Shown here piece by piece: positions 1-29,108 of a stretch of 64,000 nt of DNA (positions within the stretch are counted from its first letter, which is position 1; the number at the start of each line of letters is the position of its first letter). The DNA lies in IMG/VR virus record IMGVR_UViG_3300034105_002043, positions 12,747 to 76,746 of that record. One strand, written 5' to 3'. This DNA comes from a virus. Both the position numbers and the translations under genes were made by a program. A model generated the notes under the pieces. It was given only the letters and a program-made list of their open reading frames with translations. It had not been told where the DNA came from and searched no databases.

Positions 1-116
1 TAATCAGGTGCAGGTGCAAGTACGTTATTACGAACAAGCATTTCCGCTACATCGTTTGGGTACATTCCAACGGAACTACCAATCATATTTGATAACATTT
101 GTTCATCTATAACCAT
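1..116 (-). CDS. partial CDS (runs off window); paralogue-like of the two helical virion/membrane proteins upstream
   Basis: Read manually: MVIDEQMLSNMIGSSVGMYPNDVAEMLVRNNVLAPAPD..., ATG 13 nt after the stop of 129..785; N-terminal pattern resembles those of 129..785 and 788..1219. Confidence 0.7.
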   Translation of the reverse strand, partial: MVIDEQMLSNMIGSSVGMYPNDVAEMLVRNNVLAPAPD

Positions 117-128
117 AACTGTCTTTTT

Positions 129-785
129 TTATTCTTTTGGTCTTGCTACAAAATAAATAATAGTACCTAATACTGCAACGCCTACTAAACTTAATACAAC
201 GATTGTAGTTGTACTCAACCCGTCTTTGGTTTTATCTTTTTCTATCTTTTCTTTTTCTTCAACCAATTCATCTTCGGTTAAAACAGGTAATCCTGCTTTT
301 GCACGAGCATCAGCAATTGCTCTATTAGTTTGGTTTGTGTCGTAACTACCAAAAGCCTCTAATCCTTTACTAATTAAATCTCCTAATTTTAGGTCGCTAA
401 AAAATCCACCTTTTTTTGGAGGTGTAGTTGTTGTTTCAGTATCATCATCTGTACTCGTAACTCTAAAGTATTGAGCATTACCCTCTCTTTGACCTGCGAA
501 ATTACTTCCACTTGCTCTAAAATATTGAGCAGTTTGGGTTAATCCACCTGCAAGAGTTTGAGTTACTTTAGGATTTTGTATAAAGTTGTTTAAATCTTTA
601 AAGAAAGATTTAGAAACTTTTAATAAGTTAGCCATTAAAGAGGCAATTTGTTGAGATGAAGCGTTGTTTGGAACAGTAACTCCATTTTTCAACAATAATG
701 CAATCATTTGGCTTCTATAATTATTAACAAGCAATACTAAAGTCATTGCTCCTGTTTCAATCGTTGGTTGAATATTTTTTGCCAT
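129..785 (-). CDS. putative virion membrane protein, C-terminal TM anchor
   Basis: C-terminal hydrophobic helix IVVLSLVGVAVLGTIIYFV followed by RPKE; internal duplicated AQYFRASG/AQYFRVTS. Confidence 0.7.
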   Translation of the reverse strand: MAKNIQPTIETGAMTLVLLVNNYRSQMIALLLKNGVTVPNNASSQQIASLMANLLKVSKSFFKDLNNFIQNPKVTQTLAGGLTQTAQYFRASGSNFAGQREGNAQYFRVTSTDDDTETTTTPPKKGGFFSDLKLGDLISKGLEAFGSYDTNQTNRAIADARAKAGLPVLTEDELVEEKEKIEKDKTKDGLSTTTIVVLSLVGVAVLGTIIYFVARPKE

Positions 786-787
786 TT

Positions 788-1219
788 TTATTTATTTTTT
801 AAAATTAATGCAGTTGCTATAAACAAAGCGGAAACTACTAAAATAACATTCGTTTGGTTTGCCAATAAATGTGTATTCGTTGTAGAAGTGCTTGACTTTT
901 CATCTGCAAATTTACCTGCTCCTGTAACATTTAGGTATTGTAAGTTATCCTCAATACGTCTTCTATTTTTACAACTGTCGCAACCGCAACTTTTCTCTTC
1001 TTTGTCATCGGTTTTTTCAGTTGCGTATAATTCTAAAATAACATCTTTGTCGGGGTGGTTGTCCATAACTTTCTTAAAAGCAGGTTCTCCCACTTCGGCT
1101 ACTAACTCACTCAAACTTTTACCTAAATCAGAGGTGTTTCGTACATCGTAACCAAAAGAATTGATTATTTGCACCGCACCATTCGGATTAGAATCTGCAA
1201 CATATTTGAATACGTTCAT
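788..1219 (-). CDS. putative virion membrane protein with CGCxxC motif and C-terminal TM
   Basis: SCGCDSC, YLNVTG, C-terminal VILVVSALFIATALILK. Confidence 0.7.
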   Translation of the reverse strand: MNVFKYVADSNPNGAVQIINSFGYDVRNTSDLGKSLSELVAEVGEPAFKKVMDNHPDKDVILELYATEKTDDKEEKSCGCDSCKNRRRIEDNLQYLNVTGAGKFADEKSSTSTTNTHLLANQTNVILVVSALFIATALILKNK

Positions 1220-1237
1220 ATTTTTTTGTTTTTAAGC

Positions 1238-1275
1238 AAAAAAGAGCAAGTAGAAATGAATCACTTGCTCTCTTT
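1238..1275 (-). terminator. intrinsic terminator/attenuator after candidate capsid gene
   Basis: Inverted repeat GAGCAAGT...ACTTGCTC followed on the - strand by a T6 tract. Confidence 0.65.
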
Positions 1276-1313
1276 CTAAATTATACATTAATTCGTTATA
1301 TCATTTCTGATAA

Positions 1314-2015
1314 TTACGCTCTTAACTTGATGGTTTGACCATTAGTTACAGGAGGCGTACCGAATTGTCTGCTTACAGGTTGTCCACCTAATGCTCTCGC
1401 AAGGTTGATGTTATCAGCAGGGTAGAAGTATAACGATACAGTAGCATTTGCTAACACTTGAGCAATCGTGATTTTTGTGAAACCATCAATTCTGTAAGCA
1501 TACTTCATCGCAATAATCGTAGTTTGTTGCTGATATGGGTCAATTGTAGGCACTAATGTTTTTTGTGCCAAGTTACCATTCGCATCTCTTGTGTTAACCG
1601 CCAATGTTTGTAACACTTGGTTAGCAGTAGCCGATTGAATGTAAGTTAAACCAACAGAATATGGGTTGTTCATAAATTGATACAACATCTCTTGGTAGTT
1701 AATGTTAGGGATTCCTGAACTAATAGTTATAGAACCGATAACCAAATTTCCGTTTGTTTGGAAACCTGCGTTGTTGATGTATTGGTATGAACCTAATACG
1801 TCAAAATTAGAAACTGCTGACCCTGAAGTAGAAGTCACGTTAATAATATAAGGTTGAGATGTTTGAATATCTCCACCCATTGACATTCCACCATCTGCAC
1901 GGAAGAAATCATCTCCTGTGAAAGAAAGGTCTTGGTCGATGAATCCATCTGCATTTGAGAAAGACTCCATTGCACTTTGACGTGCATTACTTAAATATCT
2001 TCTTACGTTTGACAT
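1314..2015 (-). CDS. candidate major capsid protein (single jelly-roll-like, acidic N-terminal propeptide)
   Basis: About 50-aa D/F/G-rich N-terminus, then about 165 aa of alternating beta-strand pattern (YIINVTS, ITISSG, VGLTYIQS, LAVNTRD, TIIAMKYAYRIDG, KITIAQ, TVSLYFYP); own promoter and terminator; near the packaging ATPase; no HK97 features. Confidence 0.55.
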   Translation of the reverse strand: MSNVRRYLSNARQSAMESFSNADGFIDQDLSFTGDDFFRADGGMSMGGDIQTSQPYIINVTSTSGSAVSNFDVLGSYQYINNAGFQTNGNLVIGSITISSGIPNINYQEMLYQFMNNPYSVGLTYIQSATANQVLQTLAVNTRDANGNLAQKTLVPTIDPYQQQTTIIAMKYAYRIDGFTKITIAQVLANATVSLYFYPADNINLARALGGQPVSRQFGTPPVTNGQTIKLRA

Positions 2016-2068
2016 TTTGATTAATTTTATAATTTAATAATTTTTTTAAAACTCGGTTTGACACCAAA

Positions 2069-2194
2069 TTATGCTTTTGTAGCAGGAGCGTCAACTTTTT
2101 TCGCTAACAATGTTGTTTGAACATAGTTCGCAATCAACACACCAACAACAACTACGGCAACACTTTTTAATAAAGGAACAATTTCGTTTTTCAT
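2069..2194 (-). CDS. 41-aa single-TM protein co-transcribed with candidate capsid gene (not in ORF track)
   Basis: MKNEIVPLLKSVAVVVVGVLIANYVQTTLLAKKVDAPATKA*, read manually. Confidence 0.8.
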   Translation of the reverse strand: MKNEIVPLLKSVAVVVVGVLIANYVQTTLLAKKVDAPATKA

Positions 2195-2259
2195 TACAGA
2201 ATGACTTTTTTGATTAAACTTATTTTTAATGATAATTATTTACAGAAATAATATCAAGT

Positions 2260-2267
2260 CAAAAGTA
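2260..2267 (-). promoter_or_regulatory. Bacteroidota -7 promoter box for the capsid operon
   Basis: TACTTTTG on - strand (TAnnTTTG) in intergenic gap 66 nt upstream of ATG 2194; -33 box not evident. Confidence 0.5.
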
Positions 2268-2347
2268 TAATATAAATCAACATTAAATATATATTAATGC
2301 CTACTTTATCTTTAACAAATTATTTTCAAACTATTTTAAATTAATTT

Positions 2348-2379
2348 AAAAAGAAAAACGCACCGTGTTGGTGCGCTTT
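2348..2379 (-). terminator. intrinsic terminator after lysis cassette
   Basis: CGCACC-GTGTT-GGTGCG hairpin with T-rich tail on the - strand. Confidence 0.6.
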
Positions 2380-2384
2380 GATTC

Positions 2385-2816
2385 TTATTTTATAATAAAG
2401 TAAGTTGTTGATAATATCCCTAAAAGAGAGAGGGCTTTATATAGAAACGTTGTAGTCTTTTGTTTGGAAAGTTCTTTTTTATATGTATTAGATATTTCCT
2501 CTTGCTTGGTAAACATTTCGTCTTTTTTTGAAATAATCAAATTAAGTTTTTCTTTTTGTTGTCCCAAAACATTTATTATACTGTCTTTTAGAACTACCTC
2601 TTTTTTGGTTAATTCAAAATTACTTCTAACCAACTTAATTTCTGCTCTACAAAAATCTCCGCTAACAAGGTCATTTGCTATTTTCCTTGCTACAAGAGTA
2701 TCTATGCGAACCAAATTAGAAACTTTACTATTGCTTTTTGGAGTACCTGTCTGCGAAATAGCGTTCCCACATATTAGCATCGTAAGAATTAAACTTATCA
2801 ATTTCAATTTTTTCAT
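2385..2816 (-). CDS. spanin-like/lysis accessory protein (signal peptide, coiled coil, C-terminal TM)
   Basis: N-terminal signal peptide ending AIS-Q, coiled coil, hydrophobic C-terminus; overlaps the upstream gene by 89 nt in Rz/Rz1 fashion. Confidence 0.5.
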   Translation of the reverse strand: MKKLKLISLILTMLICGNAISQTGTPKSNSKVSNLVRIDTLVARKIANDLVSGDFCRAEIKLVRSNFELTKKEVVLKDSIINVLGQQKEKLNLIISKKDEMFTKQEEISNTYKKELSKQKTTTFLYKALSLLGILSTTYFIIK

Positions 2817-3099
2817 CTCTTTTTAAATTTTCAATTTTTGTATTATTAATGTTTACTGCTTTATGCACATTTGTAATCTGCATATTAAAAGTATCTATTT
2901 TTTTATCTAAAGCCTTTTCAGATTTTTCAATTTCTTCAACATCGTCTTTTAGTTTAGATATTTCTTCCTTTATGTAGTTAACCTTTAATGCTTCTCTACC
3001 ATTACCTACTACACTAAATAATTGAAAAACCAAAAGAAGCCCTGCTATAATTAAAAGCAAGTTAATCCTATTTGATAATATGTTTTTCAAGTCTTCCAT
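2728..3099 (-). CDS. i-spanin-like protein (N-terminal TM + coiled coil)
   Basis: TM LLLIIAGLLLVFQLFSVV then long heptad region; directly after the endolysin. Confidence 0.55.
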   Translation of the reverse strand: MEDLKNILSNRINLLLIIAGLLLVFQLFSVVGNGREALKVNYIKEEISKLKDDVEEIEKSEKALDKKIDTFNMQITNVHKAVNINNTKIENLKRDEKIEIDKFNSYDANMWERYFADRYSKKQ

Positions 3100-3566
3100 T
3101 ATGAATAAGGTTGATAAGCAGTTTTTCCACCACTTTTAATTGCTCTTAAAATTTGTTTACGTTGTTTTCCTGTTGATTCATAAGAAACGTGTACCCAATC
3201 AGGATTGTCTTTAGTTCCAAATTCCCAAATTAATTGGTCGAAGTTTAAATTTGCTTTGATATATTCAAAAACCATTTTGTTTGTAACCCCATTTCGTGTT
3301 CCGTCCATATCAATATCTATGGCTTCTCCTTGACAATGTTGACTTGTCAAACTACCACCAATAGCGGTATTAAGTTCTTTGCTTCTATATCCCGAACTAA
3401 TCATTATTGGTACGCCAAAATGTTTACGAATTGGCTCAAAAATATTTTCTGCCAATTTTTTAAAATTTTCGATGTGTTCAGGAGTAGGCATATTACTTAA
3501 TCCTTTTCTTTTTGCCATATCACTACGAGTAACTTCTGACAAGTCTAAATGCTCTGATAATTTCAT
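3099..3566 (-). CDS. endolysin, peptidase M15A family
   Basis: SSGYRSxxLNxAIGG, SQHxxGEAIDID, WVHVSY zinc motifs. Confidence 0.9.
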   Translation of the reverse strand: MKLSEHLDLSEVTRSDMAKRKGLSNMPTPEHIENFKKLAENIFEPIRKHFGVPIMISSGYRSKELNTAIGGSLTSQHCQGEAIDIDMDGTRNGVTNKMVFEYIKANLNFDQLIWEFGTKDNPDWVHVSYESTGKQRKQILRAIKSGGKTAYQPYS

Positions 3567-3570
3567 AATT

Positions 3571-3912
3571 TTATTTTTTAGTTGTTTTTTCTTCTTCTTT
3601 AACTTCTTCTTTAGTTTCTACTTGCTTTGTTCTATTAAATTGATACCCAAAGATAATCAAAACAATATTCTTAATTAAGTTGAATAACTCATCGCTCATT
3701 AGCGGTGTAAGTAATGGTATTTTAAAAGCAATTACTTTATCTACCACAAACAATCCCAATAAAGCAGATAGTAAAATTGCGGTAAACCTTGTAAGCCACT
3801 CTTGTTGATTTTTTGCACGAATTTGAGTATTTACATACCAAATAAAAGTCATTATACAAGCAATTGCAAAGACAACTCCGACAACCATTATAATACCACC
3901 CTCACTAAACAT
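3571..3912 (-). CDS. holin-like membrane protein (3 TM)
   Basis: Three hydrophobic segments, highly charged C-tail, adjacent to the endolysin. Confidence 0.6.
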   Translation of the reverse strand: MFSEGGIIMVVGVVFAIACIMTFIWYVNTQIRAKNQQEWLTRFTAILLSALLGLFVVDKVIAFKIPLLTPLMSDELFNLIKNIVLIIFGYQFNRTKQVETKEEVKEEEKTTKK

Positions 3913-4181
3913 TATTCAGGCGTATTTTGTGTGTTGTTTGAATCTTTTTTACCAAAAACTTTTTCAAGTCCTGTAATACCTAATGCTCCAAATGATAAAA
4001 GTGCAACTGCGTCAACCAAAGGTACGCTTGGTGCGTTATCAATGTGAGTGAAACTATTTGCAAAAAGAGTTGCAAACAATGTAAATGAACCTACGATTCC
4101 TACAAGTCTTTTAGAACTTGGCTCTGATTTTTCACAAAAAAACTTTGTAATAAACCATCTTTCTTGTTTTTTACTTTCCAT
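3912..4181 (-). CDS. holin-like membrane protein (2 TM)
   Basis: PSSKRLVG followed by two TMs, in the lysis cassette. Confidence 0.6.
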   Translation of the reverse strand: MESKKQERWFITKFFCEKSEPSSKRLVGIVGSFTLFATLFANSFTHIDNAPSVPLVDAVALLSFGALGITGLEKVFGKKDSNNTQNTPE

Positions 4182-4295
4182 AACTTTAATTTTTAATGAT
4201 TAATATTCAGTTAATTAAAGTTTCTTGGTTTGGAAATATTTTATCAAAATTAATAAAAATTGGGAGATTTATGCAAAACCTCGCAATTTTTATTT

Positions 4296-5111
4296 TTATC
4301 CAACATATTGTTTCATCAATTGTTTTGTTTTGAACTTTAAAGCCTCTTGCAAAGTCATTGGCTTTGTTGAAGTCAGAGGGTTTTTTAAAGTCAAAGGTTT
4401 TAATAACTTATTTTGATTGGCTATTAAATAATCTTCAACAATTTTTTCAAATCGTTTCTTATCTTTTAATAAAACTTTTTCGTCATCAATATCCACATAG
4501 GTAAAAACCCTTTTATCGCCATCTTCGTATTGTGTGTTAATATACGCTTCTACTAATAATAACAATTCTAATTTTTCCTCAAACTTATTCCTGTGCTTAA
4601 TTACGTCATCGGTAATTTTATGAAATCTAATCCAATTTAGATTCTGCCAAATTTTTGGCGAAATCCTACCTATTGACTGAAAGTGAAGAATAATGTCTGT
4701 GTCCGTGTGTCTGTTAGTACAGATTGCGCCAACAAGGTCATTCGGTAAGTAGTCACTAACGTAACGGTTAATGTCTTCGATAAGTAATAGTCCACCTCTA
4801 TAATCGTTTAATATTTTAAATAATACTTCTTGTATCTCTCTTAAAGTCATTCTAACACCGTTATCGTGAAACGGTCTTATTCGTCTTGCTTCAATTTTAG
4901 GGTGCGCCGAAAATCTAACAATATCCGATTGTTTTAATGCTTTAATATCTTCAAATTCGTCATTTACATCAAGAATTAAAGCACGTCTTGCAGGAACTCC
5001 TTTAGCGGGATTCCCTAACACATATTGCTTTATCATCTTGGTAGTAGTAAAGGTCTTTCCGCAACCTTTTCGCCCTACCGCAACTCCTAATTTTGGTTCT
5101 CTAATTTCCAT
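4296..5111 (-). CDS. FtsK/HerA-superfamily genome packaging ATPase (A32/P9-like)
   Basis: Walker A GRKGCGKT, ALILDVNDEF, Walker B-like LLLIED, Arg finger NRH, IILHFQ sensor, ISPKIWQN; 271 aa single domain with no nuclease domain, so not TerL. Confidence 0.8.
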   Translation of the reverse strand: MEIREPKLGVAVGRKGCGKTFTTTKMIKQYVLGNPAKGVPARRALILDVNDEFEDIKALKQSDIVRFSAHPKIEARRIRPFHDNGVRMTLREIQEVLFKILNDYRGGLLLIEDINRYVSDYLPNDLVGAICTNRHTDTDIILHFQSIGRISPKIWQNLNWIRFHKITDDVIKHRNKFEEKLELLLLVEAYINTQYEDGDKRVFTYVDIDDEKVLLKDKKRFEKIVEDYLIANQNKLLKPLTLKNPLTSTKPMTLQEALKFKTKQLMKQYVG

Positions 5112-5112
5112 A

Positions 5113-5229
5113 TTATCTGTCCTTGTATAGTTTGTAAATAAAAAACATCAGCCACATAACAAGTAACAACATAACAACCCAAAGAGGATTGTTATTATTG
5201 TTCTCATTACCTGTTACGTTACTTGCCAT
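5113..5229 (-). CDS. 38-aa single-TM protein coupled to the ATPase (not in ORF track)
   Basis: MASNVTGNENNNNNPLWVVMLLLVMWLMFFIYKLYKDR*; start overlaps the upstream stop. Confidence 0.75.
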   Translation of the reverse strand: MASNVTGNENNNNNPLWVVMLLLVMWLMFFIYKLYKDR

Positions 5230-6326
5230 TATTTTTTACCTCCTCTTGGTTTTTTAACTGCGGTTGTTCTTGCTTTTCTTACAGGTTTCTTTGGTTCATT
5301 ACCGCTTAATCTTTCTAATTCAGAAAGGATTGCAGGGTCGCCGAATTGTGGCATACCTGCTACGTCCTTAAAGTCGTCTGTGAATCCACCGTTGTCTTTC
5401 AAGTTACTATAAACGCCTTGCTCTTCAGGCTCAAAATAAGCCAACTGTTCGTCTAAATTTGTTTTAGGCGCACTTCTTTCAGGTCTTCTTCTTTGTCTGC
5501 TTACAGGCTCTTGAATAACTTCCGCTATATTTTCTGTATATGAAACATCGTTATCAACAGGCTCTTGATATACAGGCTCTTGATATTGTGTTTGAGGTTG
5601 AGGTTCAGGTCTTGGCGGTTCAGGTCTTGAATTTCTCATATTATTTTCTCTCATAGCCATAGTATTCTCTTTTAAAGAGTCCAAAATGCTATTAGTAGTT
5701 TTCTTTAACATAAATGCTTGTGCGCCCTTTGTAGCAATATCAGTACCAAAGTAGTACATCAATAATTGCTCATCGGTCATTCCAATACCACGTTTTTTGA
5801 ATACACGAATTAAAGGTGCTTTTACTTTGTCTTTGAATTCGTCACTTACAACAAACGCTTCTTTAATGCTATCATTAAATTCAACGGCAAAATCTTTAAT
5901 TGGCATATTTCCTGCTTCAGTTTGAAGCGTAATATTCGGGTCAATTTCGCCCTCTGCAATTAACTTGTCAATTTTTGTTTCGCTTATTTCAGGAATTTTA
6001 CCTAAATAGAAACAACCTTTTTCGTAGATGTCTAAAGTCATTTCAGCCATCATCTCCGCACCCATAGTTTTCTCTTTACCGTCTAATTGAGAATAACTTT
6101 CGTTGAATGGTCTTTCAGGCTCATTTGCTTCTTCTTCGGCAGTACCGTCAAGGTCTGCGAAACTTGGACGTTCAAAAGTAGGTTCTTCCAATTCTCCCAT
6201 TTCTTGAGCATCGCCCATTTTGTGTTGTGTGTACGACCTTTGTTTTACAGGTGCGTCTAAAGGCGAGAAATCATCATTAATAATTTCTACATCTTGAATG
6301 TCTTCGTAGTTTTCTTGGTTAATCAT
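5229..6326 (-). CDS. acidic hypothetical protein, possible packaging accessory/scaffold
   Basis: Acidic termini, helical core, P/Q/E-rich disordered C-half, basic tail; in operon with the ATPase. Confidence 0.5.
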   Translation of the reverse strand: MINQENYEDIQDVEIINDDFSPLDAPVKQRSYTQHKMGDAQEMGELEEPTFERPSFADLDGTAEEEANEPERPFNESYSQLDGKEKTMGAEMMAEMTLDIYEKGCFYLGKIPEISETKIDKLIAEGEIDPNITLQTEAGNMPIKDFAVEFNDSIKEAFVVSDEFKDKVKAPLIRVFKKRGIGMTDEQLLMYYFGTDIATKGAQAFMLKKTTNSILDSLKENTMAMRENNMRNSRPEPPRPEPQPQTQYQEPVYQEPVDNDVSYTENIAEVIQEPVSRQRRRPERSAPKTNLDEQLAYFEPEEQGVYSNLKDNGGFTDDFKDVAGMPQFGDPAILSELERLSGNEPKKPVRKARTTAVKKPRGGKK

Positions 6327-6762
6327 TTTTAAATAATTTATTTATGTTAGCATTAATGTTGTCAATTTTCTGTAATACCTGTCTGTCTGACGGGTGGTTT
6401 GAATTTAATCTCAATATTTCTTGTTTGTACAAAGATACTAAAGTGTCGGGTTTTTTCAAAATATAAGATATGTTTGAATTATCGAGTTTGAGTTCTTTTT
6501 GTATTACAAAGGCGCAAACGCCTATTGATATTCTTCGATTGTTTTTTCGCTTCATATCAAAAATATCGTCCAAAGAAATATTGAATTCATCACAAACAAG
6601 TTGAACTAATTTTAATGCTTGTTCTATTTGTTCCTGATTTAAAGTAGGTGGGTTTTTTCTTGAGTATTTTAAAATCTCAATTAACTTATCAGCCCCTATG
6701 ATTTGGATTGTCTTGTCTAATTCCTTAAACACTAAAGACACGTTGTTAGTTTCCTCTTTCAT
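6319..6762 (-). CDS. DnaA C-terminal-like HTH DNA-binding protein
   Basis: LVCDEFNISLDDIF..KRK...R.I...V....L.L....I...L pattern typical of DnaA domain IV. Confidence 0.55.
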   Translation of the reverse strand: MKEETNNVSLVFKELDKTIQIIGADKLIEILKYSRKNPPTLNQEQIEQALKLVQLVCDEFNISLDDIFDMKRKNNRRISIGVCAFVIQKELKLDNSNISYILKKPDTLVSLYKQEILRLNSNHPSDRQVLQKIDNINANINKLFKND

Positions 6763-6764
6763 AA

Positions 6765-7151
6765 CTATTCCTTTAAGTATTCGTCAATGATTTGTTTAGT
6801 CATATCAAAACCCCAAGAAAATTCTGCCTTATAGCCTTTTGAAGTAAGTTTAAGCAAACATTCGTGTTGTAGTTTTAAGTGGTCTTTTTGAGAAGCCTTA
6901 ATTGTACCGTCTTTCTTAAAAGGAGTTTCTATTTTAAGTTCAATAAATAAACCACAGTAGCCTTGTCGTGGCTCAAGAATTAAAACGTCAGGGCATTTAA
7001 ACCCGTTTTTTTGAACGAGTTTATTTCTTCCTGCCTGTCTTTCCGTTAATTTTACAGATGCTATCGTATCTGATAAAAAATCAACATCAGGATATTGGTA
7101 AGATAAATAACGGGCTACCGATTTTTGTAGTTCATATTCCTCGTGTTTCAT
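6765..7151 (-). CDS. VRR-NUC domain nuclease (possible resolvase)
   Basis: ExELQ, PDVLIL, GLFIELK, Q...L...GY motifs. Confidence 0.85.
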   Translation of the reverse strand: MKHEEYELQKSVARYLSYQYPDVDFLSDTIASVKLTERQAGRNKLVQKNGFKCPDVLILEPRQGYCGLFIELKIETPFKKDGTIKASQKDHLKLQHECLLKLTSKGYKAEFSWGFDMTKQIIDEYLKE

Positions 7152-7177
7152 ATTTTGTTGTTAGTTGTTCTTGGTTA

Positions 7178-8165: not shown

Positions 8166-8175
8166 ATTAATTTAA

Positions 8176-8442: not shown

Positions 8443-8444
8443 AA

Positions 8445-8582
8445 TTATTTTGCTTTATAAACAGTTAATCCTGTTTTAGTTTTTGATGCTACATACGTTT
8501 TACCATTGTAAGTAAATGATGCTGATTTGTTCTTTTTGGCTTCCAACATTGCTTTGAAATACCCGTTTACCGCTTTTGCCAT
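8445..8582 (-). CDS. 45-aa basic protein, possible DNA-condensing core protein (not in ORF track)
   Basis: MAKAVNGYFKAMLEAKKNKSASFTYNGKTYVASKTKTGLTVYKAK*, fills the intergenic gap exactly. Confidence 0.75.
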   Translation of the reverse strand: MAKAVNGYFKAMLEAKKNKSASFTYNGKTYVASKTKTGLTVYKAK

Positions 8583-8593
8583 AATTTCTGTTT

Positions 8594-8809
8594 TTAATTG
8601 TTTTTGTTTTTTAAATAATTTTTTCCATTATAATAAAAAGTAGAAACCCCAATAATAATCAAACTTAATTGTATAAATTTTGGTAATGTTTTACCTTTTA
8701 ATCCTGCATAAACACAAATTGGAGCAATAACAAAAATGTCAATAATTCTAATTGCTTGGCTCTTTTGAAATTCTTCTACTGTTTCTGTTCTAATTTCGTT
8801 TATTTTCAT
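8594..8809 (-). CDS. small 2-TM membrane protein
   Basis: QAIRIIDIFVIAP...; two hydrophobic segments. Confidence 0.7.
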   Translation of the reverse strand: MKINEIRTETVEEFQKSQAIRIIDIFVIAPICVYAGLKGKTLPKFIQLSLIIIGVSTFYYNGKNYLKNKNN

Positions 8810-8829
8810 ATTTTTAAAAGTTTTTACTT

Positions 8830-9012
8830 TTATTTTTTAAAAAATTTCAAAACTCTTTGAACGTTTTTTCGGTCATAAGGCACTTTGCCGTTTAACCAAT
8901 CTTGTCTTGCTTCGCAACCGCAATCTTCTGTTACTGCTTCAACTACCGCTTTAATTCCTGTAAATTTAGTAATTTTTGCAACAGTATCGCCTAATCCTCT
9001 GCTTTTTTCCAT
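8830..9012 (-). CDS. small conserved phage protein with CGC motif
   Basis: SRGLGDTVAKITKFTGIK...DCGCEARQDWLN pattern familiar from aquatic phages. Confidence 0.7.
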   Translation of the reverse strand: MEKSRGLGDTVAKITKFTGIKAVVEAVTEDCGCEARQDWLNGKVPYDRKNVQRVLKFFKK

Positions 9013-9039
9013 ACCAAATTGTTGTTATTTTACTTGGTT

Positions 9040-9243
9040 TTATTTTGTGTAATCTTTATTGATTAAATCATACGTCATATAAGCAACCGTACCTGCGCCT
9101 AATACAACGCCTATTGCCATACTTCCTAATACAGTTACCAAAGCCCCTTTACCTAAACTATATCCTTTAGAATAAGAGAAAATAGCAAGACTTAAAGGCA
9201 CAACCAATAAAACTACTGCTCCATTATTTGAATCCTTTGCCAT
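9040..9243 (-). CDS. small 2-TM membrane protein
   Basis: Two Gly-rich hydrophobic segments. Confidence 0.7.
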   Translation of the reverse strand: MAKDSNNGAVVLLVVPLSLAIFSYSKGYSLGKGALVTVLGSMAIGVVLGAGTVAYMTYDLINKDYTK

Positions 9244-9254
9244 ATACTTAATTA

Positions 9255-9581
9255 TTAAGTCGTTGAGTATTTTTTACCCATTGCTTTTTTAACATTGTAT
9301 TTTACTTCTTCTACGTCATCTACCAAATTAAGGAAATCATCGTTTGGTTTTTTCTCTTCGTTCAATTTAGCAATTGCTTTTCTGTAATATGTAATTCCAT
9401 ATATTGAAAATGCAATCAAAAGCCCGAATACAAGCAAACTTTTAAAATCCATTGGTTTTTGCGACCCCATACTTTCAAATACATCATCGCCACCACCTGA
9501 CGGTGCAACGGGTGCGGGTGCTACGGGTGCTACTGCTACGGGAGCGGGTGCTACGGGTGCTACTGCTACTTCTGTTTCCAT
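9255..9581 (-). CDS. TM protein with N-terminal APVA repeats
   Basis: VAVAPVAPAP x2, central TM, coiled C-terminus. Confidence 0.7.
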   Translation of the reverse strand: METEVAVAPVAPAPVAVAPVAPAPVAPSGGGDDVFESMGSQKPMDFKSLLVFGLLIAFSIYGITYYRKAIAKLNEEKKPNDDFLNLVDDVEEVKYNVKKAMGKKYSTT

Positions 9582-9587
9582 AATAAT

Positions 9588-10076
9588 TTATTTATTAAAT
9601 TTTTTATATGCTAAATATGCAATTACCAATCCTCCTAAAATTAGTAAATTAGTTTTGTTTTTTTCTAAAAATGTTTGAGGAGCGACATCTTTATTATCAG
9701 GATAATCTGCCCCTAATCCCTGTTGTTCAGAATTTATAACTTTCACACTTTTATCTAATGTAACTTTAGAATCATCAGGAACTAATTCTAATTCTTTTTG
9801 GAAATAAGAGTTGTTTTTAACATCTCTAATGTTACTCAAAAATATAGGATATTTGTCAGTATCTTTTTTTAAAGAAATTTGAAAACTATTAGGAAAATCT
9901 TCATTTTCTCCACCATTAAATTTTAATGGCTCTGCCTCCACAATAGTACCTTTAGGTATTGTATAAAGAAGTTTGTCTTTAATTTCTTTAGTTCCATCTC
10001 CGCCTGTTAATTCAGGTGCAGGAACAGTTTTATAACTATACTGACTTGCTTCAATTAATAATTTATACTTTGCCAT
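9588..10076 (-). CDS. C-terminally anchored membrane protein (variable N-domain)
   Basis: Ends QTFLEKNKTNLLILGGLVIAYLAYKKFNK, nearly identical to 10082..10441. Confidence 0.75.
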   Translation of the reverse strand: MAKYKLLIEASQYSYKTVPAPELTGGDGTKEIKDKLLYTIPKGTIVEAEPLKFNGGENEDFPNSFQISLKKDTDKYPIFLSNIRDVKNNSYFQKELELVPDDSKVTLDKSVKVINSEQQGLGADYPDNKDVAPQTFLEKNKTNLLILGGLVIAYLAYKKFNK

Positions 10077-10081
10077 AATTT

Positions 10082-10441
10082 CTATTTATTAAATTTTTTA
10101 TATGCTAAATATCCTAAAACCAATAAGCCAACTATTAGTAAATTGGTTTTATTTTTTTCTAAAAATGTTTGTTCTCTTACTAACATTTCAGGAACTTGAA
10201 ATACCCCATTATAATAAACTAATTTATTATCTTCTGTAAAATTATTCGGAGTAATTATTTCAACATTATATGCTCTTGCTTCGGGATTTACACCTGCATT
10301 TGTAGGCACTAATTTACCCTCAAAAACATCTCCTTTTTTAAATTTGTGTTTTAATTTTATTGAGCGAACATCGTGACGGCTTTCGTCACTTGGTGTTGTG
10401 CCAATTGCCTCAAAATCTTCTTTAAATATATATTTTGCCAT
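10082..10441 (-). CDS. C-terminally anchored membrane protein (variable N-domain)
   Basis: Ends QTFLEKNKTNLLIVGLLVLGYLAYKKFNK. Confidence 0.75.
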   Translation of the reverse strand: MAKYIFKEDFEAIGTTPSDESRHDVRSIKLKHKFKKGDVFEGKLVPTNAGVNPEARAYNVEIITPNNFTEDNKLVYYNGVFQVPEMLVREQTFLEKNKTNLLIVGLLVLGYLAYKKFNK

Positions 10442-10446
10442 AATTC

Positions 10447-10875
10447 CTATTTTTTATTTTTAAATGCTCTAACAATTAAAAATAGTCCTGCTAACATTCC
10501 TATTCCTGCATAAATAATTTTATGGTCTTGTAAATGCTGAACAAATTTATTTTTACTTGACTCTACTGCAACGGGTCTATTATCTTTAGGTTTTTTTCCT
10601 GAATTAATAACAACTTCGTCAAGAACAATATTATCGTCTAATAATTTTATTTTTTTACCTTGAAGTTCTTTAGCCTTAAAAAATTGAGGCTTGTACCCAA
10701 CGTATGATATTTTAAATTCTGAATCAGGTGTAATTGAATTATCTTCTATAACAAAATTTCCGTCCAAGTCTGCTTCGTCTGCCATTTTATTGGCAAATTC
10801 TCCTGATACAATAGTGACATTTGCTAAACCCATAGGCAACCCGTCAATATCTAAAACTTGTCCAAATATCTTCAT
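10447..10875 (-). CDS. carboxypeptidase-regulatory-like (SusC N-terminal type) domain + C-terminal TM
   Basis: GQVLD..GLP...ANVTI...ADLDGNF.I......FKISYVGYK...L.....LDEVVI. Confidence 0.85.
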   Translation of the reverse strand: MKIFGQVLDIDGLPMGLANVTIVSGEFANKMADEADLDGNFVIEDNSITPDSEFKISYVGYKPQFFKAKELQGKKIKLLDDNIVLDEVVINSGKKPKDNRPVAVESSKNKFVQHLQDHKIIYAGIGMLAGLFLIVRAFKNKK

Positions 10876-11060
10876 TATGCTTTTCCTCCTGTTATTCTTT
10901 TAATCGTGTAATAATTAACTATTGCGCCTAATGTAAAAGACACAATGCCTACTACAACAAATATTGTAGATAAATGCTGATGTGTTTTAGCACTTGCATC
11001 TTTCTTATTTTGCTCATCAGTTTGTGCGCCTGTTTGACTACTTTGAACTGCTCCTACCAT
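10875..11060 (-). CDS. small single-TM protein
   Basis: IFVVVGIVSFTLGAIVNYY. Confidence 0.7.
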   Translation of the reverse strand: MVGAVQSSQTGAQTDEQNKKDASAKTHQHLSTIFVVVGIVSFTLGAIVNYYTIKRITGGKA

Positions 11061-11661
11061 AATAATAATATAATGAAATTCCTGCTATTATTGACAATAT
11101 CCCTAATGCAATATAATTTTTGTATGCTTTTACTGCTAAACCAAAACTTCCGTCATTTAACCATTCTTTAGGTAGTTTCTCTAACATTGTTTTTTTAACT
11201 TCCCAAACTCTTAATTTTCCATCTTTTACTTGGCGGAAAGCAGGGTTTGCATTGTATATTTTTTCTGCACTTAAACCACCTCCCTGAATAATCCAATCAT
11301 CGGGCTTACCAATTGCAGGTGGGAAAAATACCGCAAAATAAGTGTCAATATATGTTTTATATTTTCCTTTGTAAAGGTTAAAATATTTCTCTACAAAATC
11401 TAACTGCTTAACTGCCGACATTTTTTGTAATTCCTCTTTAGTTGTTCCTAAAGTTTTTCTTGCACTTGCACCAAACTGAATTAAACCAACGTACCCCAAA
11501 GAGTTTGTAATAGACGGACTAAATGTACCTGCCGTTTCAAAGTGCATAATAGCCATTAACCAATTAGGGTCAACGCCTATTCTTTTCGATACTTCTTTTA
11601 CCTTTTCTACAAAAGGTGTCCTGATTGAAGCAGGTACTTTATTTTCGTATATTAATGCCAT
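11038..11661 (-). CDS. lysozyme-fold lytic transglycosylase with C-terminal TM
   Basis: WLMAIMHFET (catalytic Glu), YVGLIQF, QLDFVEKYF; C-terminal IALGILSIIAGISLYYY. Confidence 0.8.
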   Translation of the reverse strand: MALIYENKVPASIRTPFVEKVKEVSKRIGVDPNWLMAIMHFETAGTFSPSITNSLGYVGLIQFGASARKTLGTTKEELQKMSAVKQLDFVEKYFNLYKGKYKTYIDTYFAVFFPPAIGKPDDWIIQGGGLSAEKIYNANPAFRQVKDGKLRVWEVKKTMLEKLPKEWLNDGSFGLAVKAYKNYIALGILSIIAGISLYYYYGRSSSK

Positions 11662-11955
11662 TTACCACAATATTTTATCCGCATACCAACCATTTGTTCC
11701 CGTTTTTTTACGGTCTTTTTCGTGACGAATCTTATATAATCTTCTTCTTTCCTTTGCATATCCTTTCGGATAATAGCCTTTTTTTTCTTTTTCCAAATAG
11801 GTAGGGTAATCATTCATACCCAAAGCCCCTATTGAAGCGACTTTTTTACCGTTTTTAAAAACATCAATTTTTTTAAGCGGGTTAGTTGAGGGTTTTATTT
11901 CAACTCTCAACTTATCTGCTTGTGCTTTTGAATATGGTAAAATCTTGTAAGCCAT
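11662..11955 (-). CDS. Tlr6F/DUF5754-like basic protein
   Basis: STNPLKK.DV.......IGA.G..DY......ERRRLY..RH.......GW.A.KILW pattern. Confidence 0.7.
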   Translation of the reverse strand: MAYKILPYSKAQADKLRVEIKPSTNPLKKIDVFKNGKKVASIGALGMNDYPTYLEKEKKGYYPKGYAKERRRLYKIRHEKDRKKTGTNGWYADKILW

Positions 11956-11972
11956 TAATTAAATATTTTTAA

Positions 11973-12194
11973 TTAATTACCTACCGTACTTGCTATTGCT
12001 CTATACCCCTCTTTACAATCCCTTGTATCAGACATATAAATTTGACCTCTTTCATTTCTGCAATAATACTTTTTTTTATCCTTTCCCATCGCATTAAAAA
12101 ATCCGTCTGAATTTCTCTTTGGTTTTTGTACATAAGCAACAATTGCAATCACACCAAGTAAGGCTAAACCTCCAAATATATATTCTGTTTTCAT
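11973..12194 (-). CDS. N-terminal TM protein (paralogue of 13091..13225)
   Basis: YIFGGLALLGVIAIVAY..KPKRNSDGFFNAMG. Confidence 0.75.
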   Translation of the reverse strand: MKTEYIFGGLALLGVIAIVAYVQKPKRNSDGFFNAMGKDKKKYYCRNERGQIYMSDTRDCKEGYRAIASTVGN

Positions 12195-12210
12195 ATTTTT
12201 TATTTATTTA

Positions 12211-12888
12211 TTAATTATTTTCATCAAACACATAAGTTTGTTTTGTTTCGTCATACCTAATTTTCTTTAACTCTTCTTCGGTAAAATTTCTTCTGAAAAA
12301 ACCTACTATGGTCATACTTCCGCTTTTTTTACCTACCGTAAGGTATCTTTTTAATTTTTTTACCTTATCTCCCTCGCCTGTTTTTGTTGAGTCTGTATTC
12401 CCCTCAATAGTTTCGCAATAATTTGTTTTTTCGTCTAAAATTTGTACAATTATTCCTGTATGTCCTCCTTGTGTTCTTTTAGCACAAAAAATATCTCCTA
12501 CTTGTAATTTTCCACTTTTAAAAGCAATATACTTTTTATCTCCTTTTTTATTTAAGTTTTGTACATTAATTAAATTTTGTAATGCACTTCCACCTATATT
12601 TTTTGACAACCACTCTTTATCAAAAGAAAATAGTTGCATCAATACTAATTTAACATAATAAGCACACCACGCTTGACTTGACTTCCAACCAACTGCTTTC
12701 ATCATTGCTTCAAAAGCACTATCAACAAATCCTACATTCGCTCTTCCTTTGACTTTTTTTTCTAATTGAGATGCAAAGCCTGTATTTTCCAAAAAACCTA
12801 ATAGTTTAGCAAATACGAGAGGTATATTTGGAAATAAATTGGCGGTGCTATTTCCACCATTAGGATTGTTTTCATTTTCTTCTCCCAT
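12211..12888 (-). CDS. CHAP-like peptidoglycan amidase/peptidase
   Basis: AWCAYYV (Cys), GDIF, GHTGII (His), TIEGNT. Confidence 0.85.
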   Translation of the reverse strand: MGEENENNPNGGNSTANLFPNIPLVFAKLLGFLENTGFASQLEKKVKGRANVGFVDSAFEAMMKAVGWKSSQAWCAYYVKLVLMQLFSFDKEWLSKNIGGSALQNLINVQNLNKKGDKKYIAFKSGKLQVGDIFCAKRTQGGHTGIIVQILDEKTNYCETIEGNTDSTKTGEGDKVKKLKRYLTVGKKSGSMTIVGFFRRNFTEEELKKIRYDETKQTYVFDENN

Positions 12889-12893
12889 AACTT

Positions 12894-13076
12894 TTACTTT
12901 ATATTTGGGTCATTAAAAACATCATAATCCTCAACTATTTCCTTAACATCATTTTTGTAAATTATCGAAATCTTTTTTTCATTGGCTTTTCTCGTAAGAT
13001 ACATAGTCAAAGCAAAACCGCCAACACCAACTGCTACTAAACCCGTAATTAATAATATTTTTTTACCGTTAGTCAT
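12894..13076 (-). CDS. N-terminal TM protein (paralogue of 13953..14117)
   Basis: MT..KKILL..G.V.V..GGF.L..YLTR. Confidence 0.75.
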   Translation of the reverse strand: MTNGKKILLITGLVAVGVGGFALTMYLTRKANEKKISIIYKNDVKEIVEDYDVFNDPNIK

Positions 13077-13090
13077 ATTTTGTAAATAAT

Positions 13091-13225
13091 TTATTTAGCC
13101 CCACAACCACAACCACCTGTTGCGCTGAAAAAACCCTCTGAATTTTTCTTTGGTTTATTGTAATAAGCAATTAATGCTATTACCCCTACAATTGCTAAAC
13201 CCCCTATGATGTATTGCTTATTCAT
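13091..13225 (-). CDS. 44-aa TM protein (not in ORF track)
   Basis: MNKQYIIGGLAIVGVIALIAYYNKPKKNSEGFFSATGGCGCGAK*. Confidence 0.8.
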   Translation of the reverse strand: MNKQYIIGGLAIVGVIALIAYYNKPKKNSEGFFSATGGCGCGAK

Positions 13226-13230
13226 ATCTT

Positions 13231-13947
13231 TTATTTTTTAACACTTAAATTATTTTTAAACCACAAATCTAAAAATCCATTTACACCCAACATTTTTAAT
13301 AAATAACCTCTGCTCTCTAAAGGTATTGTTTTGTTATTAAGTAATTGCTCTGTTGTTAATTTACCTTTAACTTTGTTTCTCATAGAATAATAACCTGCAT
13401 TATAAGAAACCATTACTTTATTTATACTTGCAACATCGCCGTCTTTGAACGCTTCTAAAAGCCATCTTAAAACCGCAGTACCTATTGCTATGCTGAATTC
13501 AGAATTATTTTGTAATGCCCTGCGTATTTCACTTTTTACCGCCGAACTCGGCAAGGTATTAGCGTTGAAATTTTTACTTGACGGAATCGCTTTATTAAAA
13601 AACGCTTTTGCTTTTGCAGATAACGGAGAGTCAACCATTACTTGCCACTTAACAAGTATTTCCCAAACTGAATTTGGAGTAACCTGCATAAGACCTGTTG
13701 CATCATATTGATTTGGAGGAGCATTTTTACCACCGCTTTCAGTTGCTATAAAACTTGCAATAATTGAATTATCAATTTCAAATTCAGTCCCCCAAGTGTT
13801 AATGAAACCTAAATAATCTTTAATTATTTTATTCAATAAATTAGTATTAGCCAAAGCAACGCTTTTGTCAGAATACTTATAACTTCCCTGCACAAAACTT
13901 CTATTAACATCAGGTACTTTAACCGCTACTGTTGTGAACTTTCCCAT
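13231..13947 (-). CDS. soluble lytic transglycosylase (SLT/GH23)
   Basis: IATESGG, ATGLMQV, SYNAG motifs. Confidence 0.9.
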   Translation of the reverse strand: MGKFTTVAVKVPDVNRSFVQGSYKYSDKSVALANTNLLNKIIKDYLGFINTWGTEFEIDNSIIASFIATESGGKNAPPNQYDATGLMQVTPNSVWEILVKWQVMVDSPLSAKAKAFFNKAIPSSKNFNANTLPSSAVKSEIRRALQNNSEFSIAIGTAVLRWLLEAFKDGDVASINKVMVSYNAGYYSMRNKVKGKLTTEQLLNNKTIPLESRGYLLKMLGVNGFLDLWFKNNLSVKK

Positions 13948-13952
13948 AATTA

Positions 13953-14117
13953 TTAGTCTAAAGGTTCTTCATTAGGAGGAGTATCATACGTTTGTATGAT
14001 AACACTTCCACCTCTAATTTTTCTTACATTACGAGTAAGGTATTTCGCAAGGAAAAATCCTCCGATTGCAACACCAACAACGCCTACTGCTATTAAAATT
14101 TTTTGTGCTTTGGTCAT
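13953..14117 (-). CDS. 54-aa TM protein (not in ORF track)
   Basis: MTKAQKILIAVGVVGVAIGGFFLAKYLTRNVRKIRGGSVIIQTYDTPPNEEPLD*. Confidence 0.8.
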   Translation of the reverse strand: MTKAQKILIAVGVVGVAIGGFFLAKYLTRNVRKIRGGSVIIQTYDTPPNEEPLD

Positions 14118-14612
14118 TTATCGTTTTTTTCCAAAATAATTTATTGCTCCTGCTGAAAAGACTAATAAAAGACCTCCTGCAATTAAGCCACCCCAACCTA
14201 TTCCTGATTTTTTTTTAGGGTCAGTTTTTGTGTCTTTTTCAAGTGCTTCTTTTTCTTCTAATTCTTTCTTCTCTAATTCTTCTTTTTCTTTTGCTTCTTG
14301 GGCTTGTTTTTCGGCTCTTTGTCTTGCCTCTGCGTCAGCCTTATTTTTAGCAATTTGACGGTTTTTTGCTTCCGCCTCTCTCTTTTTAGCAACAAGGTCA
14401 GACAAATCTTCAATTAAATCATCTTGGGTGTCCGTAATGAATTCAACAATCTCGTCTAATTTCTCTTGCGATTCCTCTGTTGGGTTTTCATTGTGTTCCT
14501 CTCTTACGACTGCTAATTTTTGGTTTAGTTTACCTAATCCGTCTAATCTTTTAGCCATTGAAGCGGGTACTTTGTTGTCCAACGCTTTTAATAATCCATT
14601 AATTGTTTCCAT
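14118..14612 (-). CDS. coiled-coil protein with C-terminal TM
   Basis: E/K-rich coiled coil; GIGWGGLIAGGLLLVFSAGAINYF. Confidence 0.75.
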   Translation of the reverse strand: METINGLLKALDNKVPASMAKRLDGLGKLNQKLAVVREEHNENPTEESQEKLDEIVEFITDTQDDLIEDLSDLVAKKREAEAKNRQIAKNKADAEARQRAEKQAQEAKEKEELEKKELEEKEALEKDTKTDPKKKSGIGWGGLIAGGLLLVFSAGAINYFGKKR

Positions 14613-14646
14613 AGTGTTTTTTATAAAATAAAGTTAATTTTAACCA

Positions 14647-14673
14647 CAAATATAATAAAATTTTAATAAGCAA
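14647..14673 (-). promoter_or_regulatory. Bacteroidota promoter for the membrane-protein operon
   Basis: TATATTTG (-7) at 14647-14654 with TTG 16 nt upstream, in an intergenic gap. Confidence 0.6.
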
Positions 14674-14708
14674 GTCATTAATGCCTTGTTTTTATAAAAA
14701 TTTTGTTG

Positions 14709-15368
14709 TTAAGTTTCTAATAATCTGTTTGCTATCAATTTTTGTCCGCTTGGTGTCGGGTGTATTCCGTCAGCAGTCATACTACTTGGAATGTTAATTT
14801 TTTCTACAATAGTTGCTCTTTTTATTGTTGTTGGTATTGAATTTTGAAAGTCAATATATCTGTTTTTTAATTTAACCATTCCTGCTTTTGTTGGAACATA
14901 AGAGGTTGGTTTTAATTTATTTTCGTCCATAAACTTTTCAGCATCGTACCCAACAATGACATAAGGCTCTGCGCCATTCTTAATCGAGAGGTCAACCATA
15001 TCCTGAACATTCTGTAATGCTTTGTCTTTCGTAACTGCGCTAAACATATCATTAACACCACCATATATGTATATTCTATCGTACTTGTTTGTTTTCAACT
15101 TTTCTGTAAGATTAGATAATAACCAATCTGTTCTTTTACCGCCCTTTGCTAAAACATCAATTTTAATTCCTTTCGGTTCTAATTCTTTTTTTAACAGGTT
15201 GGGGTAAGTAAAAGTTACAGGTGTTCCGTTGTAATCAATAGCCGTTATAGAATCCCCGACAAAAAGCATACTTTTTGGTAACTTTTTGCCGAAGAATTTT
15301 TTTACAGTTAGATAAATTAATGCTAATCCAATAGCGGTTGTTACACCGTAAAACAATTTTTTGTTCAT
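14709..15368 (-). CDS. membrane-anchored SGNH/GDSL esterase
   Basis: N-terminal TM; FVGDSIT, GGVND, DGIHP blocks. Confidence 0.9.
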   Translation of the reverse strand: MNKKLFYGVTTAIGLALIYLTVKKFFGKKLPKSMLFVGDSITAIDYNGTPVTFTYPNLLKKELEPKGIKIDVLAKGGKRTDWLLSNLTEKLKTNKYDRIYIYGGVNDMFSAVTKDKALQNVQDMVDLSIKNGAEPYVIVGYDAEKFMDENKLKPTSYVPTKAGMVKLKNRYIDFQNSIPTTIKRATIVEKINIPSSMTADGIHPTPSGQKLIANRLLET

Positions 15369-29107: not shown

Positions 29108-29108
29108 C

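Follow-up and report, generated by a model that had tools for sequence, protein, structure and literature searches.

Here we describe a set of particle-building genes in a 64,000-nucleotide (nt) stretch of DNA (the window; positions 12,747–76,746 of the 76,746-bp IMG/VR record IMGVR_UViG_3300034105_002043, which has no end repeats). We argue that positions 1..15368 of the window are the late module of a large, tailless-type, membrane-containing virus, in which a jelly-roll shell would be filled by a motor resembling the B204 and A32 ATPases, and we put the probability of this reading at roughly 0.6. These positions are best explained as the central part of a late operon, the one for particle building, in a virus that infects freshwater Bacteroidota and has a large, linear double-stranded DNA genome. 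A previous reading of the letters alone (the sequence-only reading) had proposed the gene content of a morphogenesis module here, which the folds, membrane-protein counts and family searches below confirm. Its further proposal of a large tailless virus named two findings that would speak against it: terminase, portal or HK97 capsid genes elsewhere on the contig, and a 233-amino-acid (aa) protein that does not fold as a jelly roll. Both were looked for and neither was found, and the interpretation is supported. The module extends beyond the left edge of the window, and the record, with 114 gene calls, is itself a fragment. Every plausible gene in the window lies on the minus strand, and GC content is ~32%.

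The gene at 4296..5111 (minus strand) encodes a 271-aa, single-domain FtsK-HerA ATPase, a candidate genome-packaging motor of the B204/A32-like kind. Its Walker A (GRKGCGKT) and Walker B (LLLIED) motifs are invariant or nearly so among 32 homologues, and an AlphaFold2 (AF2) model built on the alignment of these homologues (predicted local distance difference test score, pLDDT, 87.5) places the core in residues 1–216, followed by short C-terminal helices, with neither a nuclease nor an N-terminal HAS/VirB4 domain. The Pfam signal is weak (AAA_22, E 3e-3), and some of the 847 related ATPase clusters carry PF01935, the HerA central domain. In Foldseek searches of PDB, the B204 packaging NTPases of Sulfolobus turreted icosahedral viruses STIV2 and STIV ranked first (E 2e-9 to 1e-7), followed by SIR2/HerA (1.8e-6) and Zot. 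The VIA structural search likewise put B204 on top (Z 17.4, root-mean-square deviation 2.7, 184/204 residues), ahead of DndH-C (16.4), HerA (15.3), VirB4 (14.9), TrwB (12.3) and FtsK (10.7); no terminase was among the top 50 structural neighbours.

Profile comparisons were made with viral ATPase and coat sequences from public records. Using hhalign, the ATPase profile matched the packaging ATPase ORF13 of Thermus phage P23-77 at 86.8% (E 4e-6, 151 columns), and STIV2 B204 at 49.5% over 131 columns, while the match to ORF17 of Haloarcula virus SH1 was confined to the P-loop and the window's own zeta-toxin P-loop kinase, used as a control, reached 2%. A sequence search of PDB entries returned only P-loop or chance matches. 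Viral packaging ATPases are thus the nearest relatives of the 271-aa protein, its closest matches in both structure and profile being viral, and the label of single-domain FtsK/HerA-type ATPase given to it from the letters is correct.

The second component is a 233-aa protein (1314..2015, minus strand), a single jelly-roll protein and candidate major capsid protein. Its AF2 model, built on 95 diverse family members, has a pLDDT of 86.5 overall and ~97 over residues 50–205, and comprises a helix (residues 3–19), a disordered leader and a jelly-roll beta sandwich (~50–205). The beta-rich product noted earlier therefore folds, at high confidence, as a jelly roll, single and not double. Two conserved ADG motifs lie in the leader; they resemble the Gly-Gly motifs of the neighbouring giant proteins described below. 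No Pfam family was found for the protein, the family of which comprises 1984 clusters at 90% identity and 554 at 50%, nearly all of 220–250 aa. Its structural neighbours are all jelly rolls, none of them close. Foldseek against PDB returned comovirus and picornavirus capsid subunits, satellite tobacco mosaic virus and C1q/TNF proteins (E ~2e-3), and against predicted viral structures it gave weak, mixed jelly-roll matches that included tail-fibre/collagen-like heads and picornavirus capsids. In VIA, virus capsid and virion chains, including that of PM2, span Z 4.9–5.8: the grapevine fanleaf virus coat scored 5.8, a PR772 virion chain 5.7, a phiCjT23 capsid chain 5.4, the coat of Flavobacterium-infecting lipid phage FLiP 5.3, and the coats of Faustovirus, Paramecium bursaria chlorella virus 1 and Emiliania huxleyi virus 5.2. 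A weak match to phrog_773 was the only capsid-family match in the hmmscans, the sequence search of PDB entries gave only chance or P-loop matches, and tblastn found no match in 50,697 phage records or 72,556 plasmid records. The jelly-roll fold alone is no proof of a capsid role.

What argues for that role is the way in which the gene is kept and expressed. The sequence-only reading gave the 233-aa gene its own promoter and terminator, and these are present, in a unit shared with a 41-aa single-pass membrane peptide (2069..2194, minus strand). A Bacteroidota-type -7 promoter box (TAnnTTTG; 2260..2267, minus strand, read from 2267) lies 73 nt upstream of the 41-aa gene. An intrinsic terminator follows the coat-candidate gene (1238..1270, read 1270..1238 on the minus strand; GAGCAAGT, an 11-nt loop, ACTTGCTC, then TTTTTT); it was read from the sequence, the scanner allowing loops of at most 8 nt. 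A second, found by the terminator scan (2355..2379, read 2379..2355, minus strand), closes the upstream unit. The 233-aa protein and the 41-aa peptide are the most conserved products relative to a 132-kb relative (below), at 97.4% against a median of 78%. Contigs from four lake or freshwater RNA libraries of four studies that map to 1..15400 concentrate on the coat gene, a pile-up that cannot strictly rank genes and may partly reflect the conservation of this one. Taken with the size of the family and the ADG motifs of the leader, these observations suggest that the 233-aa protein is the major capsid protein.

The relative in question came from a coat-protein search of species-representative genomes, in which a protein 97% identical to the query turned up on a contig of 132,486 bp (C9, JBBAJS010000009.1) binned with a Sediminibacterium metagenome-assembled genome (MAG). 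The record is colinear with C9:54529-122811. The contig is uniform in GC, and its genes converge from both ends on position 34.5 kb. Its ends are inverted terminal repeats (L009:1-100 and L015:12200-12486) of ~90 nt, built of a tandem 11-nt unit (GGGAATTTCGT) and followed by G-rich 13-nt repeats; the window's record lacks its own ends. At the right end two arrays are separated by a short near-palindrome; we considered a hairpin telomere there and dropped it, the two terminal arrays being direct and not inverted. A 101-kb relative that is more distant (L062) carries a similar terminal motif (TTCCCACGAAGTTCCCAAAAA) at its right end, the inner left arm of the 132-kb contig recurs in three independent ~100-kb assemblies, and two contigs, of 131,626 and 137,300 bp, encode homologues of a further gene. 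From the colinearity, the terminal repeats and these two contigs it follows that complete genomes of the clade are ~131–137 kb, and that the record is missing ~54 kb at its left end and ~10 kb at its right. The expectation that the genome exceeds 64 kb and continues past both window edges thus holds, with ~130 kb in relatives. By volume scaling only, from a genome nine times that of PRD1, the shell might measure ~120–140 nm, about twice the width of PRD1.

The additional DNA of the 132-kb relative encodes HNH, RecT, a methylase, an APS-kinase/sulfotransferase set, a DUF285 repeat protein, repeat-rich proteins of 839 and 939 aa and more membrane proteins; no tailed-phage families were found in it. 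Three tRNA genes (Pro-TGG, Gln-TTG, Leu-TAG) sit just inside its right repeat (L015:12035-12276), with none in the record. An 84.6-kb contig from another genome of the MAG's bacterial family, which we reached only through a 26-nt chance-level match, starts with 23-nt tandem repeats (L075:3-78) and may be the end of a linear element.

With the complete contig in hand, a second jelly-roll gene became apparent. A hidden Markov model of the coat-candidate family identified a 154-aa paralogue at 37,282-37,746 of the 132-kb contig (minus strand, E 5e-14), which carries the family signature DANG...IDPYQ and is kept in all three ~100-kb relatives (42–71% identity), and thus in all four relatives examined. 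Because the record stops short of the paralogue on its left side, the sequence-only reading could see only one jelly-roll gene. We consider it a candidate vertex protein or second coat protein. It adjoins an LRAT/NlpC-like anchored protein and a 747-aa DUF285 repeat protein, and may belong with them to a vertex or spike set. The family also has tandem forms. A 102-kb relative encodes a 397-aa protein with two full jelly-roll domains in tandem (L083:10001-11191) together with an ordinary 233-aa-type gene and the short paralogue, and the idea that tandem two-domain members serve as the main coat in some relatives was dropped given that ordinary gene. A further two-domain member of 411 aa (P0161) could not be placed on any contig.

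Several signals bear on the host. The element encodes five kinds of cell-wall hydrolase, which indicates a bacterial host. Terminator-like sites number 20, compared with 7 expected; a Shine-Dalgarno core precedes only six of the 114 genes, the upstream regions being 56% A; and seven TAnnTTTG boxes occur in 2.2 kb of intergenic DNA, as against 1.5 +/- 1.2 in shuffles. Two of the five genome matches to the coat protein are labelled Bacteroidota, the other three being short contigs in unrelated bins. A CRISPR/host search of 301 genomes of the MAG's family returned only matches of 26–60 nt, and in the four that were checked no repeat array was nearby. Together with the Sediminibacterium binning, the terminators, the scarcity of Shine-Dalgarno sites and the TAnnTTTG boxes point, as had been proposed, to a virus of Bacteroidota, and on these mostly sequence-derived signals the host is probably a member of that phylum. 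As for habitat, 14 lake-water metagenome runs contained at least 80% of the sampled words, two of which may be the source of the record.

Might these genes belong to something other than a virus? A linear, plasmid-like element that moves DNA by a membrane-based route (conjugation or vesicles) would use the ATPase as its pump, the jelly roll as a fibre or adhesin and the polyvalent proteins (below) as effectors. The structural neighbours of the ATPase do include VirB4, TrwB, TcpA and FtsK (Z 10.7–14.9) and those of the jelly roll include Ena pilus subunits; membrane proteins and cell-wall hydrolases are abundant in the element, the 132-kb relative was binned with a bacterial MAG, and polyvalent ART, DUF2958 and zeta-toxin proteins occur in conjugative elements as well as in phages. 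However, the ATPase best matches viral packaging ATPases by structure and by profile and is without the VirB4 N-terminal domain, and general Pfam scans (~90 proteins, not every small one, with no search aimed at relaxases) found no relaxase, coupling protein, VirB4 or other type IV secretion family. The lack of any match to the coat candidate among the plasmid records, its extreme conservation and dedicated high-output unit, which fit a shell better than an adhesin, and the viral classification of the records in IMG/VR also speak for a virus, and we regard the plasmid-like element as unlikely, although it is the alternative that fares best.

Alternatively, the element could be a virus whose particle is designed differently (pleomorphic, for example, or an envelope around a nucleoprotein core) and uses the jelly roll as a spike or matrix protein. 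The ~50 membrane proteins, far above the number in known internal-membrane phages, would suit such a particle, as would a jelly-roll core that matches C1q/TNF-like heads and capsid proteins equally and the lack of recognisable tape-measure or cement proteins. Yet a dedicated B204-type packaging ATPase, which in PRD1 and STIV goes with a preformed shell, implies such a shell here; receptor-binding heads are usually the most variable of proteins, whereas this jelly-roll gene is the most conserved; and a second paralogue is what would be expected of a vertex or second coat protein. We consider a different design improbable, and slightly more so than a plasmid-like element.

The tailless reading also draws on searches for the genes that such a virus should lack. 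Pfam and PHROGs scans of ~70 record proteins found no terminase, portal, HK97 capsid, tail tube, sheath or baseplate families. Six-frame searches covered the record, the three ~100-kb relatives, the whole MAG holding the 132-kb relative, and control genomes. In the five related genomes there was no match to Terminase_6N (PF03237), none to Phage_capsid (PF05065), divergent forms of which may escape detection, and none to Phage_portal (PF04860), other portal families having been sought by hmmscan only, with none found. The only matches were in the control genomes and on a separate MAG contig, C29, where an ordinary tailed prophage with terminase, portal and HK97 capsid (C29:8949-14409) served as an internal positive control. 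Since both were detected, the method works, and the element is without detectable versions of the three genes: they are absent from the 76.7-kb record, the three ~100-kb relatives and the 132-kb relative.

Absence by profile can mislead, as with the crAss-like phages, which once appeared to be without recognisable hallmark genes. In a tailed phage of that kind, the capsid, portal, terminase and tail genes would be too divergent for profiles to detect, with accessory roles left to the small ATPase and the jelly-roll protein. We regard this as very unlikely and as the least probable of the alternatives. In its favour, many proteins lack an assignable family, the Atlas clusters of a 365-aa neighbour of the ATPase were labelled 'Uroviricota' automatically, a PHROG annotated as terminase large subunit is a weak match to the ATPase (E 1.8e-5) and a muralytic protein (11038..11661) matches part of a 'baseplate hub' PHROG. 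Against it, the ATPase has 271 aa, no nuclease domain and no terminase among its top 50 structural neighbours, the hub match is limited to the muralytic end of the profile (phrog_196, positions 382-523 of 536), the sole capsid-sized unknown (370 aa) occurs in just 67 clusters and is conserved below the median gene, the jelly-roll gene ranks first for both conservation and breadth of distribution, and the six-frame searches detected the controls and nothing on the element.

A number of observations weigh against a tailless virus with a jelly-roll shell and a packaging motor. The particle has not been seen. The ATPase profile matches PRD1 P9 in the P-loop only, and the fold also lies near DndH, HerA and VirB4 (Z 14.9–16.4), so that a packaging role is not proven. 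The coat candidate matches jelly rolls generically: its best score (Z 6.3) is to a carbohydrate-binding module, C1q/TNF-like heads and Ena pilus subunits score about equal to capsid proteins, and there is no sequence similarity to the coats of P23-77 (VP16/VP17) or SH1 (VP7/VP4), for which hhalign gave 0.1–0.7%. No scan found a DNA polymerase, no terminal protein was found, and the protein-primed family B polymerase (PF03175) has no match on the element. Proteins of 370, 529, 559 and 363 aa in the record, and of 939, 839 and 611 aa in the 132-kb relative, have no recognised fold. Finally, the host assignment comes from binning and sequence signals, with no CRISPR spacer match.

The remaining genes of the module, all on the minus strand, are largely those of small membrane proteins and of enzymes acting on cell walls and lipids. 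In 1..15368 we counted 18 membrane proteins with a strong hydrophobic segment and six borderline ones, in agreement with the earlier estimate of about 20; in the whole record ~50 of the 114 genes have a strong segment, nearly all of them within its first 28 kb. Two C-terminally membrane-anchored proteins of 218 aa (129..785; no known family by family scans) and 143 aa (788..1219) lie beyond the coat-candidate gene. On its other side are a peptidase M15, a cell-wall peptidase (3099..3566, E 1.6e-20), and two membrane proteins of 113 and 89 aa with two hydrophobic segments each (3571..4181). The hydrophobicity profile shows a 38-aa membrane peptide encoded directly upstream of the ATPase gene (5113..5229), next to an acidic 365-aa protein with a lysine/arginine-rich C-terminus that belongs to no known family and is 83% conserved (5229..6326); ESM Atlas gave no usable family for it or for the 370-aa unknown. 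A PAP2-family lipid phosphatase (7178..7822, E 2.3e-13) is followed by ~12 small proteins, most with one or two hydrophobic segments and one with a CarboxypepD_reg-like domain (7827..11060).

The sequence-only reading had listed a membrane-anchored transglycosylase and a membrane-anchored esterase, and family scans and hydrophobicity agree: the SLT-like muralytic enzyme (lysozyme) at 11038..11661 has a C-terminal membrane anchor and the GDSL esterase/lipase at 14709..15368 an N-terminal one. Between them are a CHAP-domain cell-wall hydrolase (12211..12888) and a second SLT lytic transglycosylase, which is without an anchor and highly variable (13231..13947; 35% identity to the 132-kb relative). 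Two further proteins are encoded at L003. One, soluble and of 261 aa, sits among membrane-protein genes, has a HEFSH motif, is 95.8% conserved and matches no family (L003:7734-8519, minus strand); it is a candidate maturation protease. The other has a C-terminal membrane anchor and resembles nucleotidyltransferases (PHROG 1614/4400; L003:5893-6618, minus strand).

Adjoining the module, and outside the coordinates of the finding, positions 15373..43911 (minus strand) encode giant multi-domain 'polyvalent' proteins (1731, 2368, 2281 and 769 aa), a MoxR-type ATPase and a zeta-toxin-domain protein. The domains of the giant proteins include ART-PolyVal, DUF2958, DUF5661 and zeta-toxin, and a search of PDB sequences with three of them gave only P-loop or chance matches. 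Five large proteins of this block contain ~100 Gly-Gly sites, 2–2.4 times the number expected, with a strong bias to the context [YF]-A-[DKN]-G-G-x-[VLIM] and mostly at domain borders, where they look like protease sites or flexible linkers. The virion polyproteins of adenovirus and African swine fever virus have protease sites that end in Gly-Gly. The giant proteins here resemble these in being punctuated by [YF]-A-[DKN]-G-G, with cleavage putative, and differ from the adenovirus consensus in that the aromatic residue stands one position further from the Gly-Gly; they are likely to be particle cargo. The genes for the MoxR-type AAA+ ATPase (470 aa, 93% conserved) and for a 529-aa partner after it, which weakly matches DUF7192, lie at 29109-32114.

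Elsewhere in the window are a DnaQ-type exonuclease, two DNA methylases, a glucosaminidase and an eight-gene glycan-synthesis cluster. The sugar cluster at 44852-53251 includes GT1, GT2, RgpF, aminotransferase, acetyltransferase, dioxygenase and methyltransferase genes, and a second sugar-modification set with APS kinase, sulfotransferase and cytidylyltransferase-like genes lies in the left arm of the 132-kb relative (L010:18854 to L011:3159).

These genes suggest how an icosahedral, tailless particle with an internal membrane might be built. Host RNA polymerase would read the genes from Bacteroidota-type promoters, the motifs of which are present. The 233-aa jelly-roll protein would be made abundantly from the unit that it shares with the 41-aa membrane peptide, shed its N-terminal leader and form the shell, and the shorter paralogue would either occupy the vertices or serve as a second coat. 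The virus membrane would hold around 50 small single-pass proteins as well as the lipid enzymes PAP2 and GDSL. The 271-aa ATPase, whose fold is that of B204/A32-like proteins, would pump the linear genome into the preformed particle, and the membrane-anchored and soluble cell-wall hydrolases would act in entry and release. The giant Gly-Gly-punctuated proteins may be cut into effector domains and carried in the particle.

How does such a module compare with those of known viruses? With STIV, STIV2 and the A32-like group it shares a single-domain FtsK-HerA ATPase of 200–270 aa and, with PRD1 and STIV2, an ATPase gene that lies a few genes from that of the coat (here a candidate), among genes for small membrane proteins. 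It differs from STIV2 B204 in sequence (~15% identity) and in an extra C-terminal helical region (residues 217–271), and while the coats of STIV2 and PRD1 are double jelly rolls, the candidate here is single. The Halopanivirales (P23-77, SH1) are nearer in some respects: they are tailless and membrane-containing, and have two-gene single jelly-roll coats and an A32-like ATPase. P23-77 ORF13 is the best ATPase profile match, two jelly-roll paralogues are present here as well, and the SH1 genome is linear, as is this one. However, their coat proteins (VP16/VP17, VP7/VP4) have no detectable sequence similarity to the candidate and are absent from its top structural neighbours, with kinship possible at the level of the fold; their coat genes are adjacent, whereas the paralogue genes here are ~28 kb apart; and their hosts are Thermus and haloarchaea. 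Inverted terminal repeats are shared by the 132-kb relative with the linear replicons of tectivirus and adenovirus type, although a family B polymerase was not found. The module would work like those of PRD1-, STIV- and P23-77-type viruses. As there is no sequence kinship with Halopanivirales coats, no double jelly-roll main coat and no protein-primed polymerase, membership in an existing family is not supported.

Genome size sets the element furthest apart. STIV2 has 16.6 kb, PRD1 14.9 kb and the two Halopanivirales 17 and 31 kb, compared with ~130 kb here, which is 4–9 times the reference viruses compared (records of 15–31 kb). Metagenomic prokaryotic double jelly-roll viruses, which are tailless and have genomes of roughly 7–18 kb throughout (Yutin et al., 2018, PMC5894146), likewise encode an FtsK-HerA packaging ATPase, M15 peptidase, lysozymes and glycosyltransferases; the present element departs from them in its single jelly-roll coat candidate and its ~10 times larger genome. 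The statement of the sequence-only reading that characterised viruses of such gene content are small thus agrees with both sets, and its suggestion of an undescribed lineage is in keeping with the literature that we searched, with incomplete coverage, in which we found no description of this one.

To our knowledge, the tailless membrane-containing viruses characterised so far in bacteria and archaea are all small, and we know of large genomes only in tailed phages among bacterial viruses and only in eukaryotic hosts among jelly-roll viruses. What is new here is the size of the complete genome with its inverted terminal repeats, the second paralogue, the ATPase link to P23-77 and the host signals. 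Tentatively, and at somewhat less than even odds, we propose that 'giant' tailless phages are seen here for the first time. They would form an abundant and as yet undescribed lineage of high rank among the viruses of Bacteroidota, with linear genomes of ~100–137 kb and telomere-like inverted repeats, a large icosahedral shell of the single jelly-roll protein and its paralogue over a protein-rich membrane, a B204/A32-like motor, and proteolysis at Gly-Gly sites that releases packaged effectors. If so, the lineage would be a bacterial counterpart of the large jelly-roll viruses of eukaryotes and possibly a living intermediate between single and double jelly-roll capsids, offering a testable case both for how jelly-roll capsids scale up and for the transition from single to double. 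The size limit of tailless viruses would no longer hold, given a common lake-water lineage that combines this particle module with ~130 kb of DNA, and virome surveys keyed to tailed-phage markers would be mislabelling an abundant group.

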